This document shows, one piece after another, positions 15,301 through 17,854 of a stretch of DNA of 64,000 bases; the stretch's first letter is position 1; each line of letters begins with the position of its first letter. A program made the translations under genes and the position numbers. This DNA is from Arenicellales bacterium (GTDB lineage Bacteria; Pseudomonadota; Gammaproteobacteria; Arenicellales; JAHEKD01), in contig CBDCFC010000047.1 in NCBI GenBank assembly GCA_965215945.1, positions 20,643 through 84,642 of the forward strand, given 5' to 3'. The notes below the pieces were generated by a model, which searched no databases, was not told the origin of the DNA, and saw only the letters and a program-made list of their open reading frames with translations.

Positions 15301-17854
15301 AGAGGGCGATAACATTGACGATGACGAACTCTATGCACAGATTTCGCATGGTCAATTAGGTACAGACATTGCTGCCTTGCATAACAGTAAATTTTTTGAG
15401 CGTAATTACATTTATTACCAATACAAAGAGCTGGCCGATCCGATCAATCAACTGGTGGAACAGGCGAACAGCACCTTTGAAACGGTCGAAACCCTGAAAA
15501 CGGATTATGAAAACAGTGGTAGTACGTACTGGGAGGCACTGGCCTATGCCCCGGACGGGCAGATCAAAAAAGCCAAATACGGCAACGGGGTGGAATCAAA
15601 TTGGAAGTACGACCCGCGTGGTCGGACTTATGAGATTCAAGCCAAGAAAGGCAGCGGTGACTATTTACAGAACATGTTCTTTGACTACGACAACATCGGC
15701 AATCTCGTTTGGCGTGATGACCGGGTTAACCAATATGATGAGCGATTCGAATACGATGTATTAAACCGTCTTGAATCGTCCACGTTAAGTGGCAGTGCGG
15801 TGGCGGAATATGCCAATCTGGGTCTTCAGAGTACGAATTATGAATACGATGCGTTGGGTAATCTGACCTGTAAGTCGGATGTGGGTAATTACACTTACGG
15901 TCAGGGCATAGGCAGTGGTGCAGGTGTCCATGCGGTGGTCTCGACCAGCGGAACGGGCAATTCAAGTTGCAGCAGCAATGCTATCTACAGTTTTGCCCCG
16001 GCCAGTTTCAGTTATGACGATAACGGCAATCAGATCAGCGGCAACGGGCGTACGGTGACGTATTCACCGTTTAACAAGCCCACAAAAATCGTTAAAGGCG
16101 CGAATGTAAATGATTTTATCTACGGCCCGGAACGTCAACTCATTTACCAGCGTGAAAAAATCCATGATGAGTACCGTGAAACCCGCTATGTGGGTGGGAT
16201 ATACGAGGAAACCATCAAGGACGGTAATGATAACAACGCTGAAGCGGTACATCATCTGACCATGGCCGGGCATACCATTGCGGTGCTGAAAACCAACGAA
16301 GATTTAAGTCAGTTGAATTCGATGCACTACCTGCATCAAGATCACCTGGATTCAGTGGTGATGATTACCGATAACACGGGGAAAGTGGTGGAAAAAAACC
16401 ACTATGATCCGTTTGGTAAAAAGCGGTTAGCCATCATCGAGAATCCAACGATCTACGCCGCTGGATTCCTGCCGATCACGGATCGGAGTTTTACCGGACA
16501 CCGCTATTTACCGGAGCAGGAATTGGTTCACATGAAAGGGCGGGTGTATGATCCGGTGTTCGGACGGTTCCTGTCCCCTGACCCGCATATACAGTCGCCG
16601 CTGAATAGTCAGAGTTTAAATCGATACAGCTATGTGCTAAACAACCCATTGTCGCTGACGGACCCGAGTGGGTATTTCTTCAGCTGGTTTAAAAAGCTGT
16701 TCAAGAAAATTCTTAAGATAATCAAAAAGATCATCAAGAAGATCGTGAAGATCATCAAAAAGGTGATCAAGGCGATTGAGAAGGTGATTACCAAGATCAT
16801 CATGGCCTTACCGGTGGAGATACGAATCATCGCGGCCATAGTGGTGGCGTTTTATGCGCCGCAGATTGCCGCAAGCATAGGCAATTTCTTTGCCGGGGCT
16901 GGAACATTCACGGCAGCTGGATTAAAAGCAACATTACTGGGCAAAATTGCAATTGGGGCCACCGGTGGATTTTTAGCAGGTCTAATTACCACCGGCTCGT
17001 TTAAAGGAGCATTGATAGGTGGATTGACTGGAGCGGCATTTGCAGGAGTTGGCAGCTTCTTTGCTAATCCAAGTGGTGCAGCAGCGAAATGGGGATTAGT
17101 GAAGTCTGTAGGACATATTGCGTCTAAAGGTGTAGCACAATTAACCAATTTGGGAGTTGCCGCAAAAGCATTAGCACATGGGGTTATTGGTGGTTTGTCA
17201 AGTAAACTATCGGGTGGCAGCTTTAGCAAATCCTTTTTATCTACAGGACTTGTAGCAGCGTTTACCCCTGTGATTGATCGACTTGGTGGCGGTATGACGA
17301 ATAGGAGTCTATCTTCGGTTGGTTTAAGAACCGGAGCAGCCGCCTTGTTAGGTGGTGTTGCCCAAAAGTTGATAGGCGGATCATTTTCGATGGGAGCTAG
17401 ATTGGGTGCGTTTAGCCGATTCTTTAATACTGAAGGTCAAGCGGTTAAGATTGGGGACAAAATAGAACAATGGTTCAAGAATCAATTTTCAAATTTCTCA
17501 AGAGCATCTGATATTATGTACGAAGAGCTTCATGGTGGTAAGAATGGATTAAATGATCTTTCTGATGCTCAGAGACATGCCAATGGTATGAAGAGAATTA
17601 CAGAAGAAATTGGCCCCGGTACGGCAGCAATGGTTGGTACAGGTCATGAGATAAAAAATGTAGTGTCTGATGGGCAGTCTTTAGATCAAACCTTGATGGA
17701 TATGGGAAATAATATCCACGGAATTTCATCAGGGATAACTGGAAATCCAATTAATGATTCTGATTTACTTACTATAGATCAATCAGTAAATGGAGGATAC
17801 CCAAGTTCTCAAACATATCAGGATAGCCCTGTAGTGCAAGCAGGAGGATTTTAG
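9365..17854 (+). CDS. Giant Sec-signal Rhs/YD-repeat polymorphic toxin with fused TcB-like and TcC-like architecture and a C-terminal toxin
   Basis: 2829 aa. The domain order is: signal peptide; an SpvB/TcdB-N-like segment (YTLPVTVPPGVLGLSPKLTLS); seven xDxNGDGxxD FG-GAP/VCBS-like repeats; many YD repeats (YDDYGNV, YDGFGNV, YDEFGRI, YDAKGNL and others); an Rhs core ending [15 protein letters not shown]...[12 protein letters not shown]; and a 392-aa C-terminal region. Confidence 0.9.
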   Translation: MRLFRRGINTFYFTIALLLMGPMAHVFAQSDAPVGSDQGNIEISTDGQAMYTLPVTVPPGVLGLSPKLTLSVSQTGQLNVGGLSSITRCTGAYVDHGETKPVRLLASDQYCLDGAPLVLVDGVQGEAGSIYHTQIESFQKIQAVGQQGNGPQYFKVKTRTGGTLYFGHSVLSRTARSADNTVLNWSISLIVDPSGNRLWYTYKDKSTNSTPEVVLNAILYGAKTSAAAPVRIDFEYEHNGHARYGYQYGDPVKSTQRLKQITTKADNKIARKYVVTYEQIAPSGASRVTKIHECPATGKCYRPSVFNYAAAQTGWQNASISQPSALQDNQGRSRGVVLDINNDGFNDWVIAVQPETGSAQIQTWLGSDSGWVDGTDFTLPGVLFDYRMNAEGIPVGNLADLNGDGLVDYFQAYFQYRDDGSTYTSRTTWLNTGNGFEANTALRPPWYQFVINADGIASAYDRYADVNGDGLVDAVRAIHRRTDADQPNASSHVTRLNTGSDWAVSSAYKLPSNVYFSDHVTQPEGIYQGELLDINGDGLVDFVQSAKVSGTDTRTATFLNTGSGWSANTAYQIPALATLMDYSVYDKGIPNAELVDINGDGLIDIWQALKLGANDPQYNAWLNNGSTFVYSNAYKPKNRTTYIRGSGAVLKYGELMDVDGDGKPEHVQHVLTESTGATSLVVYKHNGSGWVSDAGLKSLLPSIPFYMQPASSSLSSQQLLQLADLDGDGSAEAFLSQDKTNGWQVKTDKNKLTNGTQPGYLTQHTNGLGIETRLEYGLSTIDAILYTPADSTQNTRTSAAVNTPIVLVKTVKKMNGLIHPKTAKTNDQGNGWFRVNHQYGELKADLTGRGSLGFKTRTITDERTGIAVHSEFYQGYPFSGMPYKSRQQLGDTVLSTTETPSMEQKSVTGGLTTYIYAPQTIAKNYDPVTGDLLSTTTTTSTYDDYGNVLTKSQVTSGQVNNTSQRFEQFTDTTYENRSDGNDWLLGLPIRTEVTAKALDQPDQTNVTTASYNDEGYPDTETLQPGHPQSLTTSYTYDGFGNVKQTDITSGGDTRTSKAIYTADGRFPTTSINAKLHESKVEIDSRWGKPTKQTNANMLVKVTEYDGFGTVINEDTRWDGSPNRQARDHAKPYWCEGNDTCPANAVYVVQALDDQGDSPQSVYYDAYGRELLRQTTGADLDGNNNSDGPAIYVATEYDTMGRKKKTSRPGTNKSNLTYDEVVYDEFGRIKERISSDGTTHITYEGLTTITRNPEQQVSKVTHDLRGKPVASTDALNNVTQYKYDAKGNLKQTIDAENNVIEMSYDIFGRKTSMDDPDMGHWEYRYDGFGNLEWQKDAKDSITTMEYDELNRLEKRTDDLGGANQAITTWAYDTADRSTQTIDSNGNTQYARKGAAKGLLAYVSGPAYTRTHVYDQAGRPVKEITRINGGKDYISERGYYRASEKVAWEKYPSGLVLTKEYDPSGFPMKLESGDLEKYQAYLEEYYAYEDLVYRIKEMENDRRQQLDEYIELLKGDKVGEDENGEPEYAGGGLEDQVKPFIDKINQTVNTANTWQGYANEAGKLFEDHAAWYDAYWDEFEWYDGKFNENYDQYLIYDKKSDDEVRWGQEDANKATTHYNNYQTALNNWKNKWHAACKAMGKSIYGSFGQYRDNCAKGFYVEGKRYFGLGTGTHNVCFTLGMSAGSEQGGYETCTSYGSAYTWLPTYSKTIKEQSGYKQVCDNDSNGGGGGGNGVDAGSDFDVMIRWLADGFLDSFIPPSYAEGNNCWTEPNIITKTVKVIKGPDYGSIQSNLDASQSYVPTIEREGQLATDYNAKALAHQQKAQQHADTASGFAIEANKYVRGQTVYNAIANNHGLVALLLNDSKNDNNPANDTGRYAGYKKKVEQYAGVWQCKKIGQNPLLPGKYINGENPTTQEESWIENYDNPNVGPFKPSPIAGATLTPWDSDDKNGPEKWWINHTTGEMAAAEKLPIYKKHNCDEEEGDNIDDDELYAQISHGQLGTDIAALHNSKFFERNYIYYQYKELADPINQLVEQANSTFETVETLKTDYENSGSTYWEALAYAPDGQIKKAKYGNGVESNWKYDPRGRTYEIQAKKGSGDYLQNMFFDYDNIGNLVWRDDRVNQYDERFEYDVLNRLESSTLSGSAVAEYANLGLQSTNYEYDALGNLTCKSDVGNYTYGQGIGSGAGVHAVVSTSGTGNSSCSSNAIYSFAPASFSYDDNGNQISGNGRTVTYSPFNKPTKIVKGANVNDFIYGPERQLIYQREKIHDEYRETRYVGGIYEETIKDGNDNNAEAVHHLTMAGHTIAVLKTNEDLSQLNSMHYLHQDHLDSVVMITDNTGKVVEKNHYDPFGKKRLAIIENPTIYAAGFLPITDRSFTGHRYLPEQELVHMKGRVYDPVFGRFLSPDPHIQSPLNSQSLNRYSYVLNNPLSLTDPSGYFFSWFKKLFKKILKIIKKIIKKIVKIIKKVIKAIEKVITKIIMALPVEIRIIAAIVVAFYAPQIAASIGNFFAGAGTFTAAGLKATLLGKIAIGATGGFLAGLITTGSFKGALIGGLTGAAFAGVGSFFANPSGAAAKWGLVKSVGHIASKGVAQLTNLGVAAKALAHGVIGGLSSKLSGGSFSKSFLSTGLVAAFTPVIDRLGGGMTNRSLSSVGLRTGAAALLGGVAQKLIGGSFSMGARLGAFSRFFNTEGQAVKIGDKIEQWFKNQFSNFSRASDIMYEELHGGKNGLNDLSDAQRHANGMKRITEEIGPGTAAMVGTGHEIKNVVSDGQSLDQTLMDMGNNIHGISSGITGNPINDSDLLTIDQSVNGGYPSSQTYQDSPVVQAGGF
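15188..16282 (+). repeat. 1,095-bp block identical to 22549-23643 (main Rhs versus large orphan)
   Basis: By-eye alignment shows identity. The ORF track independently shows three identical antisense or alternate-frame ORFs at a constant offset of 7,361 bp. Confidence 0.9.

Follow-up and report, generated by a model that had tools for sequence, protein, structure and literature searches.

What is the segment that lies between the self-cleavage site of an Rhs protein and its toxin, and what could it do for a bacterium? The question is raised by a 64,000-nucleotide stretch of an Arenicellales bacterium genome (contig CBDCFC010000047.1, hereafter the window), in which a main Rhs gene and two orphan cassettes encode the same lysine-rich helix directly behind the sequence DPSGY. 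An earlier note had proposed that this helix and the glycine zipper behind it could form a membrane-inserting or self-translocating device, a reading that is partly supported here. We give about an even chance to the segment being the front of a ~250-aa pre-toxin membrane-inserting delivery module, which runs from the Rhs self-cleavage site to a swappable tip in Sec-type SpvB/TcB-like toxins and probably brings interchangeable toxin tips into the membranes of a rival bacterium or across them. The module may translocate, anchor or itself be toxic; a membrane-inserting delivery module is our best reading of its function.

Cassettes and the predicted self-cleavage site

The window holds four cassettes, three of them with a full module:

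9365..17854, plus strand: main Rhs gene, 2829 aa (ORF and translation)
18475..19752, plus strand: orphan cassette 1, with 44 Rhs-core residues, full module and tip 2 (helix 18619-18747; junction Asn 19339-19341; tip 2 19342-19749)
20055..20513, plus strand: fourth, truncated cassette, with the last module repeat and FFN (20097-20195) and a fourth tip (20196-20510)
22336..25203, plus strand: large orphan cassette 2, with 562 Rhs-core residues, full module and tip 3 (helix 24037-24165; junction Asn 24760-24762; tip 3 24763-25200)
16580..16675, plus strand: Rhs aspartyl autoprotease motif DPHIQ... of the main gene, 27 residues between two Asp, read from sequence

In the main protein a signal-peptide-like N-terminus, a TcdB mid/N region and FG-GAP and RHS repeats are joined to the module of its C-terminal fragment (CT) and a tip, with Pfam matches to RHS_repeat, FG-GAP_3 and TcdB_toxin_midN. 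Its cleavage is predicted to fall before Y2437. Because the helix stands directly behind the autocleavage motif, the fragment set free by cleavage would begin with it. Translation confirmed DPSGY (16661, 18604 and 24022) and the Lys/Ile helix in the main gene and both orphans, the helix onset being identical bar one I/V position, and in all three the order is helix, hydrophobic helix, glycine zipper, two GGxFxxG repeats, a conserved Asn and an unrelated tip; the shared glycine-rich motifs followed by diverging tips are thus as first described. That all toxin cassettes share the module holds for these three but not for the truncated fourth, which keeps the last 33 module residues (...GGSFSMGARLGAMSRFFN) and has no helix; its positions 20116-20195 match 17349-17428 of the main gene at 76%, and the large orphan is 90% identical in DNA to 15116-17052 of that gene.

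The Lys/Ile helix and the glycine-rich region

In the main gene the module and its tip are laid out as follows:

16676..16804, plus strand: polycationic Lys/Ile amphipathic helix, CT residues 2-44
16691..16771, plus strand: 33-bp tandem repeat (11 codons, KKxxKKxxKxx), 2.5 copies, building the helix (Tandem Repeats Finder)
16814..16891, plus strand: hydrophobic transmembrane-like helix, CT 48-73, 26 residues
16928..17062, plus strand: glycine-zipper helical hairpin with TGS(L/F)KG motif, CT 86-130
17150..17428, plus strand: two DUF637-like repeats to the junction Asn (AHGxxGGxxSxLxGGxFxxGF, GGxxSxLxGGxFxxGA)
17429..17851, plus strand: variable toxin tip 1, 141 aa, diverging from the orphan tips (dN ~1.1)

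The stretch SWF...KIIM holds 15 Lys (~37%) and one Glu in 41 residues, with Lys spacings of 1, 3 and 4, a net charge of about +14, a Lys arc of ~160 degrees and a face of Ile, Val and Phe. Its hydrophobic moment at 100 degrees is 0.75, against 0.18 +/- 0.09 in shuffled sequences (0 of 10,000 shuffles reach 0.75), which bears out the earlier statement that the lysines fall on one helical face. The maximum, 0.80 at 98.1 degrees, is that of an 11/3 periodicity, so exact that the hydrophobic stripe would run straight for ~60 Angstrom; the underlying 33-bp repeat scores 99 with 79% matches, and the AF2 model places a helix at CT 2-44 (block pLDDT 77-89). Cationic amphipathic antimicrobial and cell-penetrating peptides, and engineered polycation-endolysin fusions, are among the closest comparisons, together with the 11-residue-repeat helices of apolipoproteins and alpha-synuclein that lie on lipid surfaces. 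The window helix resembles them in its Lys arc, its Ile/Val/Phe face, its very high moment and its exact periodicity, and relatives have the leader fused upstream of peptidoglycan hydrolases. Unlike them, it is internal, would be exposed only once the protein has cleaved itself, and is followed by a transmembrane-like helix, and its activity on membranes or LPS is putative.

The helix is under strong purifying selection. Between the main gene and orphan 1, the first 50 codons comprise 36 identical, 13 synonymous and one non-synonymous, reproducing the 13 of 14 counted before (Nei-Gojobori dN 0.014, dS 0.855, dN/dS ~0.016), and a binomial calculation with an assumed synonymous fraction of 0.25 gives 1.6e-7 for 13 or more synonymous changes in 14, in line with the earlier view that the peptide is no low-complexity accident. 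It is also the most conserved CT segment among the cassettes, the neighbouring segments diverging. A functionless low-complexity linker, similar between cassettes only through recombination or gene conversion, would fit the tandem repeat and the lower synonymous divergence of the helix (pS 0.25-0.55) compared with the flanking core (0.85-0.89), but the 13-to-1 pattern excludes that the identity stems from recent conversion, and distant relatives keep amphipathic basic leaders of different sequence; we disfavour this explanation as scarcely credible. In relatives the basic segment before the transmembrane helix measures 6 to 52 aa with a net charge of up to +20, the cleanly delimited lengths, on a heuristic delimitation and a list read by eye, include 11, 22, 33, 44 and 51-52, and the moment is 0.6-0.8 in the 16 relatives tested. 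Family-wide, a basic motif stands before the hydrophobic helix, and the window helix is an extreme case of it.

The hydrophobic stretch noticed behind it is a transmembrane-like helix by both hydropathy (Kyte-Doolittle 1.7-2.4 in 19-residue windows) and the AF2 model (CT 48-73), with the family-wide consensus xIAAIvIAvxAP. The zipper consists of small-xxx-small runs, modelled as helices at 88-107 and 110-131, with G108 conserved in 99%; relatives match the DUF637 profile over a span (80-168) that takes in the zipper. The repeats (block pLDDT 85-91) contain H169, conserved in 98%, and end in FFN, whose junction Asn, N252 of the CT, is present in 101 of 103 sequences. The module model is all-helical and the module has almost no acidic residues. 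The glycine-rich stretch from the hydrophobic helix to the FN junction measures ~180 aa and not the ~230 aa first estimated, and the tips measure 136-146 aa.

The family, its carriers and the CdiA pre-toxin region

The earlier note knew of no Rhs pre-toxin module of this kind, yet the window module belongs to a large family: the exhaustive profile search returned 2495 cluster representatives (E<=1e-3), 427 of them when the limit is set to E<=1e-10. NNPLxxTDPxG precedes the module wherever the motif can be located. Of the 25 members that exceed 1900 aa, every one has FG-GAP-like repeats, 15 have a SpvB-type motif and none has a PAAR motif; full-length carriers are SpvB/FG-GAP (TcB-like) Rhs proteins, and a Janthinobacterium plasmid has a member split into B and C genes. 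Most members starting at Met have a signal-peptide-like N-terminus. No T6SS genes occur among the Pfam matches listed for two related loci (L001 and L012), nor a TcA-like gene in the window or the neighbouring loci examined. These Rhs genes repeatedly have a conserved secreted protein, u2 (7076-7510), as their neighbour.

The glycine-rich part overlaps Pfam DUF637 (PF04830), the CdiA pre-toxin domain, to which it is distantly related. DUF637 is matched by 26 of 103 members, and some relatives are named 'DUF637 domain-containing protein' by NCBI or UniRef. Six relatives pass its cut-off; the window copies stay below it (17.4 bits vs 26.6). With hhalign, one repeat aligns to the CdiA pre-toxin region over 40-44 columns (E ~1e-4, probability 52-57%); PT-VENN is not among the Pfam families matched by family members. 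A systematic survey assigns DUF637 to the T5SS (PMC3482391), and two later papers treat it as a T5SS/CdiA marker (PMC9846239, PMC13515810). Like the CdiA region (DUF637, or 'PT637', then PT-VENN), the module stands directly N-terminal to a polymorphic toxin on a Sec-exported carrier that must deliver from outside the target, is Gly/Ala-rich and helical, contains the motif A-H-(G/A)-x-x-G-G-x-x-(S/A)-x-L-Q-G, and has a conserved Asn at the junction to the variable part. Unlike it, the window module sits on an Rhs shell behind an aspartyl self-cleavage site, without FHA repeats, and opens with a basic amphipathic leader and a hydrophobic helix; the CdiA region of E. coli 536 has no apparent counterpart to either.

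The DUF637/pre-toxin and CT regions of CdiA stay in the producer's periplasm until receptor binding (PMC13625785). In a loosely similar way the module could stop Sec transfer or arrest secretion, so that the C-terminus of the Rhs protein is tethered or paused in the inner membrane of the producing cell and waits there for a trigger. We hold this to be very unlikely. The signal-peptide-like N-termini imply passage through Sec, and a hydrophobic helix does lie near the C-terminus; its positive charges, however, are N-terminal to it and would be periplasmic, the wrong side for stop-transfer by the positive-inside rule, a shell with its aspartyl protease could not enclose a tethered CT, and the exported immunity proteins discussed below indicate that they encounter the tip in the periplasm and not in the cytoplasm.

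Shell, tips and the proposed delivery

The core of the main Rhs protein has a net charge of -82 and its CT +19; among the 25 long relatives the core is negative in 24 (-6 to -167), with CTs of -4 to +25. In Tc toxins, cocoon cargo must be net positive, with a pI of ~8 or more, its exit is reportedly hindered by amphipathic helices, and it enters the TcA channel C-terminus first (PMC6868009). The polycationic helix could serve packaging and exit rather than membrane entry, neutralising or docking the CT in an acidic shell and lending it the positive charge for a cation-selective Tc-like channel or gate. The TcB-type FG-GAP propeller, the gate of Tc toxins, is present in all long members, and the helix is the best conserved CT segment of cassettes, all of which have to fit the same shell. 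Against this, the CT is still about +5 without the helix, a 6-11-residue basic motif suffices in many members, strict amphipathicity and an Ile face kept straight over 60 Angstrom go beyond what the supply of charge requires, amphipathic helices can block exit in the same Tc study, and a TcA-like gene is missing from the window and the neighbouring loci examined; we regard packaging as quite improbable. The carriers share with TcB-TcC the SpvB/FG-GAP propeller and Rhs shell, aspartyl self-cleavage, net-positive cargo of similar order in size and, in some members, the split into B/C genes. They differ in the signal-peptide-like N-termini of most of those starting at Met, in that no TcA-like gene was seen nearby, and in antibacterial-looking tips accompanied by immunity genes and orphan cassettes, and a cargo that opens with amphipathic and hydrophobic helices, against the advice of the Tc study, whose exit findings suggest that the leader may be the trailing and not the leading end.

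Where the tips act is suggested by their neighbours:

17857..18207, plus strand: immunity candidate 1, lipoprotein, lipobox LSGC (translation)
19755..20024, plus strand: immunity candidate 2, small membrane protein, 89 aa, two or more hydrophobic stretches (translation)
25219..25656, plus strand: immunity candidate 3, lipoprotein, lipobox IQGC (translation)

A lipobox, signal peptide or transmembrane segment marks the immunity candidates in all three window cassettes, in six of seven related loci and on the Janthinobacterium plasmid, and the recognisable tips of relatives are mostly peptidoglycan enzymes, including Tae4, YkuD/Tlde1, M23 and CHAP, so most tips would act in the periplasm. The candidates of loci L003 and L012 have no export signals; some tips may thus act in the cytoplasm, and the picture of a tip that stays in the periplasm cannot hold generally. 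Tip 1 gave only a sub-threshold DUF6973 match and no PDB sequence match. A tip of 130-180 aa always follows the module, the two apparently tip-less members examined being uninformative, since they lie on a contig of low coverage or close to the end of one.

The module might instead be the toxin, a pore-forming or depolarising element comparable to Tse5-CT, glycine-zipper toxins or Gly-rich microcins, with the tip as a second, independent toxin. Tse5 is a precedent, an Rhs shell storing a membrane-inserting CT that forms pores (PMC9637101). Both C-terminal fragments have predicted transmembrane and amphipathic helices (insertion by the window's is presumed by analogy), both are freed by an Rhs DPxG aspartyl protease and kept in the shell (predicted for the window Rhs), and the Tse5 immunity protein, Tsi5, is a small membrane protein, as is the orphan 1 candidate. 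The hydrophobic helix, zipper, lytic-peptide-like leader and scarcity of acidic residues also suit a pore former, as do weak Pfam Gly-zipper_YMGG matches in 5 of 103 members, and u2 could be a common immunity factor. However, Tse5 of Pseudomonas aeruginosa is a PAAR-like T6SS effector whose 149-aa CT is the toxin itself, without a further tip; here the tip that always follows is often a recognisable enzyme, cassettes sharing the module have different immunity candidates, which maps specificity to the tips, and the module profile met no similar chain at E<=10 in the PDB sequence set, which may lack the Tse5 CT. We regard a pore former as unlikely. Tde1 offers another parallel, its GxxxG repeats, N-terminal to an enzymatic toxin, being needed for membrane permeabilisation and delivery (PMC10240207); it is T6SS-delivered, adaptor-bound and active in the cytoplasm, without Rhs shell, polycationic helix or DUF637-like repeats.

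Under the delivery reading, self-cleavage between Gly and Tyr of DPSGY would leave the basic CT within the acidic Rhs/TcB-like shell. Once released at a Gram-negative target, the leader's Lys face would bind anionic lipid or LPS, and the hydrophobic helix and glycine zipper would enter the membrane. Since the positive charge is N-terminal to the hydrophobic helix and the membrane is negative inside, the favoured orientation in the cytoplasmic membrane is N-in, C-out, which would place or hold the DUF637-like domain and tip in the periplasm, where most tips are expected to act; carrying tips into the cytoplasm is not the most likely role of the module. By analogy with CdiA VENN cleavage, a second release at the conserved Asn is possible, if weakly supported. 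That helix, hydrophobic helix and zipper stand together in a module bearing interchangeable tips agrees with the earlier note.

Two minus-strand ORFs (16630-16839 and 16852-17229) overlie the region; the simplest reading is that they mirror the coding strand, and the restriction of substitutions to synonymous ones agrees with the plus frame.

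Toxin cassettes and the module they share

The features of the window used here are the following, residues of the C-terminal part (CT) being counted from Y2437 of the main Rhs protein, directly after the predicted cleavage site DPSG/Y.

9365-17854: main Rhs gene, complete, 2829 aa
18475-19752 and 22336-25203: orphan cassettes 1 and 2
16691-16771: 33-bp tandem repeat encoding the Lys/Ile helix, 2.5 copies
CT 2-44: Lys/Ile helix (AlphaFold2 model and sequence landmarks)
CT 48-73: hydrophobic helix (AlphaFold2 model and sequence landmarks)
CT 86-130: glycine-zipper hairpin with TTGSFKG (AlphaFold2 model and sequence landmarks)
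between CT 130 and 160: variable linker
CT 160-252: two repeats, the second GGxxxKLxGGSFSxGA, ending FFN
CT 253-393: tip (variable toxin end) of the main Rhs

The main protein matches RHS_repeat in Pfam (E 9.6e-22), and the core of all three full cassettes ends in a paired Asp motif (SPDPHIQ...), the predicted self-cleavage site. The first Asp motif is DPHI, not DPxG, with a spacing of 27 residues versus the usual 18-23 or so, a variant common to the close relatives whose sequences were examined whole. Translation of the three cassettes bore out the claim of the earlier note that DPSGY sites (at 16661, 18604 and 24022) each lead into the same Lys/Ile segment, with one I/V position, followed by a hydrophobic stretch, the listed Gly-rich motifs and, past an FN junction, unrelated tips; the Gly-rich part, put there at some 230 aa, measures about 180 aa. 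The further statement that all toxin cassettes carry the module holds for three complete copies and fails for a fourth cassette (20055-20513), which keeps just the final 33 module residues. In this cassette, which has no obvious immunity gene, the last module repeat runs through FFNDE into a new tip of 105 aa, and the break point inside the module indicates that recombination can occur there. Past it lie a tyrosine-recombinase-like C-terminal fragment, recognized by eye from HxxRHT...Y, and then an IS110-family transposase (20497-20784; 21149-22162, minus strand).

The AlphaFold2 model of the CT, built on a 92-sequence alignment, is all-helical, with mean pLDDT per 10-residue block of 77-89 in the Lys helix and 85-91 in the repeats, and leaves the tip unpredicted; compared with the PDB by Foldseek, it gave a best E of 0.79, and a PDB sequence search with the three tips returned nothing meaningful. 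Acidic residues are nearly absent from the module. The glycine zipper holds ten overlapping (G/A/S)xxx(G/A/S) motifs (CT 95-135), with weak matches to Pfam Gly-zipper families (Omp, E 0.033, for the window CTs; YMGG in 5 of 103 sampled relatives).

The 15 Lys and 1 Glu counted previously were found again, in a 41-residue core. Its hydrophobic moment, a check proposed with that count, is 0.75 at 100 degrees versus 0.18 ± 0.09 in 10,000 shuffles, none of which was as high (z about 6), and peaks at 98.1 degrees (range 0.75-0.80), that is, 11 residues per 3 turns; this exact 11/3 periodicity would keep the Ile face straight along about 60 Å. The 33-bp repeat corresponds to an 11-residue unit, KKxxKKxxKxx. 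The codon comparison of the main and orphan 1 copies was reproduced exactly (13 synonymous changes and 1 non-synonymous; Nei-Gojobori dN 0.014, dS 0.855), and within this genome no other part of the CT is as conserved as the Lys/Ile helix, dN being 0.04-0.09 in the last 44 core residues, about 0.3 in the glycine zipper, about 0.7 in the repeats (main versus orphans) and about 1 in the tips. The reading of the helix as a functionless repeat is contradicted by this dN/dS and by the distant relatives, and we find it hardly credible.

Across the family, the segment between cleavage site and hydrophobic helix is as short as 6 residues (MISLRQ) or as long as 51-52, the longest with a net charge of +15 to +20, and between these come leaders of 11 (YFFSKLKKYWR), 22 (FFFKKIFKAIKKAFKAIKKYIK), 33 and 44 residues, a series read from a heuristically delimited list, not from a computed distribution, in which lengths of 15-16 and 37-40 also occur. 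Sixteen long or intermediate leaders, differing in sequence, gave moments of 0.6-0.8 at 3.55-3.69 residues per turn, and the retention of the moment despite different sequences argues for selection on a basic, strictly amphipathic leader N-terminal to the hydrophobic helix. What the window encodes as the Lys/Ile helix is a basic motif conserved in the family, in expanded form. With a basic leader before a hydrophobic helix, the arrangement is like that of a signal anchor, for which an N-in orientation is favoured. The Lys/Ile helix also combines the high net charge and high helical moment of cationic amphipathic peptides, with putative permeabilizing activity on membranes or LPS. Charge compensation was considered and discarded, as long-helix members have no clearly more acidic tips.

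Family size and relation to DUF637

The earlier note knew of no Rhs pre-toxin module like this one; a profile search of 1.84 billion representatives placed the module in a large Rhs C-terminal family that overlaps DUF637 in its Gly-rich part and has 2495 representatives at E<=1e-3, 427 at E<=1e-10 and 17 at E<=1e-30. The exhaustive search was needed: a word-indexed protein search with the module returned only three relatives, probably because Lys/Ile words dominated candidate selection. A contig scan with Lys/Ile-helix patterns confirmed no locus, and a contig search with the Gly-rich sub-alignment found eight marine loci. Among the best 150 of the 2495, every match with a locatable cleavage motif follows NNPLxxTDPxG(Y/F/M/H), the remainder being mostly fragments that start within the module; the module is positioned after the Rhs self-cleavage motif. 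The consensus is Y-F-x-(K/R)-rich, then xIAAIvIAvxAP, GflsGxVaTGSLKGALxGAfSGAaFxGIG, AHGvaGGvmSxLqGGKFGhGF and VGGTaSxLsGGKFANGAvTAAFsrAFN(D/E), and lastly a tip of 130-180 aa. Of 103 sequences, 98% keep His169 and 101 keep Asn252. The helix is under selection, and the basic amphipathic leader, hydrophobic helix and glycine zipper are conserved family-wide.

The named hosts include Microbulbifer, Pseudoalteromonas, Shewanella, Idiomarina, Pseudidiomarina, Echinimonas and Wenzhouxiangella, and further loci, in MAGs, belong to Arenicellales, Arenicella and a Poriferihabitaceae bin. The module is also present on plasmids of Janthinobacterium lividum and Ensifer adhaerens; in the former (strain EIF2, NZ_CP049829.1, 2297-10751) the B-like (FG-GAP) and C-like (RHS) genes are separate and the module ends the C gene. 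Cultured and annotated, this family member could be taken as a model for experiments; its leader is short and weakly basic, its tip has an HExxH motif (HELVH), and the protein encoded downstream has 291 aa and a signal peptide.

Searched against Pfam and NCBIfam, the three window CTs matched nothing above threshold. Orphan 1 reached 17.4 bits with DUF637 (PF04830; E 0.004), below the 26.6-bit gathering cut-off, and the Pfam scan gave no DUF637 match for the main copy or orphan 2; matches of the window CTs to PRANC and DUF677 were dismissed as composition-driven noise. Scanned singly, 26/103 members matched DUF637 at E<=0.01 (best 3.7e-7), and six relatives, tied to the window module at E<1e-28, pass the cut-off with 26.7-37.6 bits, their matches lying within profile positions 80-168, i.e., the glycine zipper and first repeat. 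Some of the relatives that pass are already named 'DUF637 domain-containing protein' by NCBI or UniRef. The interpretation offered in the earlier note was right in part, and the observation itself was confirmed.

Like DUF637, the module sits directly upstream of a polymorphic C-terminal toxin. DUF637, the pre-toxin domain of CdiA, was listed in a survey as a signature of T5SS (PMC3482391) and has been used in later work as a T5SS/CdiA marker (PMC9846239, PMC13515810). Unlike CdiA, the carriers of the module are Rhs proteins, and Fil_haemagg was not matched in the 103 members. PT-VENN was rejected, since Pfam reported it neither for the window copies nor for the 103 relatives, as was PT-TG (PF14449), absent among the families of the window copies at E<=1 and of the 103 relatives at E<=0.01 despite the conserved TGS. 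By hhalign, the module aligned with CdiA of E. coli 536 at 57% probability (E 1e-4, 40 columns only) and with a 22-sequence alignment of the CdiA pre-toxin region at 52.6% (E 1.4e-4, 44 columns only), pairing the repeat AHGxxGGxxSxLQGG with AKAIAHAILGGVTAALQG of CdiA and not reaching the second repeat. The His and the junction Asn lie 77 residues apart in the module (median) versus 89 in CdiA, and global His-to-Asn alignment scored 5.6 SD above shuffles. The Gly-rich part of the module is probably a distant homologue of DUF637. In CdiA, the VENN Asn cyclizes to release the toxin (PMC13625785). The FN Asn of the module might be its equivalent, an attractive but weak proposal: hhalign stops before the second repeat, though the spacing and the global alignment are suggestive of such an equivalence.

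Carriers, tips and possible modes of action

The main Rhs begins with a stretch that by eye is signal-peptide-like (MRLFRRGINTFYFTIALLLMGPMAHVFA/Q), and Pfam matched FG-GAP_3 and TcdB_toxin_midN in it; the SpvB model of Pfam gave no match on this protein, and PPGVLGLSPKLTL near its N-terminus fits the SpvB-type motif scored in long relatives. Among members longer than 1900 aa, FG-GAP-type DxNxDG repeats occur in 25/25, the SpvB-type motif in 15/25 and a PAAR motif in none of the 25; most of the long members that start at Met have a signal-peptide-like N-terminus (by eye), and one relative is SpvB, FG-GAP and TcdB_midN by Pfam. The TcdB/TcaC class of polymorphic toxins is defined by signal peptide, SpvB, beta-propeller and RHS (Zhang et al., PMC3482391), its export route having been deduced in that survey from domain architecture alone. 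By predicted domains, the carriers of the module, main Rhs included, belong to this class.

The prePAAR/Eag-type effectors of T6SS have N-terminal TM helices, a PAAR domain and a DUF1795 chaperone gene. An assignment of the main Rhs to them was rejected: there is no PAAR motif, the upstream ORFs match no Pfam family, and the TM helix is C-terminal, past the cleavage site.

The shell of the main Rhs contains a non-Rhs insertion of some 560 aa (window about 13775-15455, residues about 1470-2030), the first part acidic and helical-looking, followed by a Cys-/Gly-rich stretch including NGGGGGGNG. Its sequence is common only to the main Rhs and a close relative (P0006); other long members have different long insertions at this position, and the homology of orphan 2 to the main gene begins within it, at 15116.

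The genes directly downstream of the tips, taken as immunity candidates, are as follows.

Main Rhs: lipoprotein, lipobox LSGC
Orphan 1: 89-aa membrane protein, at least two hydrophobic stretches
Orphan 2: lipoprotein, lipobox IQGC
Related loci: signal peptide, lipobox or TM anchor in 6/7
Janthinobacterium plasmid: signal peptide
Related loci L003 and L012: cytosolic-looking

Among the 103 relatives, the recognizable tips are Tae4 (3), YkuD (3), Tlde1 (2), M23, CHAP, DUF4329/Tox-JAB-2 (2), Ntox44 (2) and M91, about half of these families being directed at peptidoglycan. Exported immunity candidates and peptidoglycan-directed tips together suggest that most tips act in the periplasm, which would argue against a dedicated cytoplasm-entry function of the module, and is compatible with a device that crosses the outer membrane with the tip or anchors the tip at the inner membrane. 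The module goes with SpvB/TcB-type Rhs carriers, mostly signal-peptide-like and without PAAR, and with exported immunity candidates.

Our preferred reading, on which we are evenly divided, is that the module is a membrane-inserting device for delivery or anchoring. The net charge of the main protein is -82 in the Rhs core versus +19 in the CT, and the basic CT would be kept inside the acidic shell. After release, the Lys face would bind anionic lipid or LPS, the hydrophobic helix and zipper would insert, and the inside-negative potential would pull the +14 leader inward, giving an N-in/C-out orientation; the DUF637-like domain and tip would stay periplasmic, and the tip may later be freed at the Asn. 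There are precedents for parts of this scheme, since Tse5-CT demonstrates that a membrane-inserting fragment can be carried by an Rhs shell (PMC9637101), and the glycine zipper of Tde1 is needed for permeabilization and delivery (PMC10240207). The cargo of Tc cocoons needs a net positive charge and enters the channel with its C-terminus first (PMC6868009), so the leader of the module could be the trailing end. With such charges in view, a role of the module in packaging or charge for the shell is another reading, and quite an unlikely one. Still less can be said for a stop-transfer element acting on the producer side: its positive charges would be on the wrong side of the hydrophobic helix, and we consider it very unlikely.

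That the module itself forms a pore is unlikely, as cassettes with the same module have different immunity candidates; the idea still draws some support from a conserved secreted neighbour. A pore former like Tse5-CT was rejected in particular, for the module profile matched no Rhs chain at E<=10 in the PDB set (which may hold no Tse5 entry with its CT), and a separate tip always follows the module. As a test of module toxicity, tip-less members proved uninformative, the two examined being on a low-coverage contig and near a contig end.

Taken together, the elements could form something larger, although we consider this rather improbable: leader, hydrophobic helix, zipper and DUF637-like domain would be an autonomous entry machine driven by membrane potential, by which a Sec-exported TcB/TcC-type Rhs shell, needing neither T6SS nor TcA, could deliver enzymes through the Gram-negative envelope. 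The Lys/Ile helix would break through the anionic outer or inner membrane, or dock there, in effect as a natural polycation-hydrolase fusion, and Asn cyclization at the FN junction, a chemistry shared with CdiA VENN, would free the tip.

Studies of how Rhs proteins are delivered have mostly concerned T6SS and the TcA-dependent Tc toxins. The literature searched contains no study of how Sec-exported SpvB/TcB-type Rhs toxins cross the Gram-negative envelope, and we know of none; it also contains no account that treats the family as a pre-toxin module of Rhs proteins, or that describes the extension by a transmembrane helix and basic leader, or a polycationic helix built of repeats. Thousands of such toxins carry the module, exactly at the place where one would look for a delivery device, and it offers an entry point to how they reach their targets, with a testable handle in a 41-residue peptide, a hydrophobic helix, GxxxG residues, and one His and one Asn to mutate. 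If it is a carrier, it would be a portable cassette for taking enzymes, e.g., peptidoglycan hydrolases, into Gram-negative bacteria from outside. For the annotation of polymorphic toxins, it matters that DUF637-type pre-toxin domains are not a marker of T5SS only.

Genomic neighbourhood of the Rhs island

Five small ORFs lie upstream of the main Rhs gene (6668-9284).

6668-7060: small ORF
7076-7510: small ORF, homologues at L001, L003, L004 and L012
7491-7877: small ORF
7909-8472: small ORF, homologues at L003 and L012
8469-9284: small ORF, homologues at L003 and L012

All five have signal-peptide, lipoprotein or TM-anchor N-termini and match no Pfam family, and the homologues adjoin related Rhs genes; these ORFs are candidate accessory, export or common-immunity factors. 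A tRNA-Arg(ACG) gene and dnaX/recR flank the entire Rhs island (window 5815-5891 to 26769-29344), and the Rhs gene of L001 (protein P0009) is just upstream of dnaX-ybaB-recR, in an island with recombinase and transposase genes, which suggests an integration hot spot common to both. The stretch that separates the last immunity gene from dnaX contains, at 25898-26001, a 20-bp tandem repeat of GGCTCTACAATATTAACGGG that looks perfect (5.2 copies, 97% matches). A second IS110-family transposase (30012-31079, minus strand) is found just past recR, and a 507-aa Fic-domain protein (3947-5470, minus strand) is encoded between two tRNA-Arg genes.
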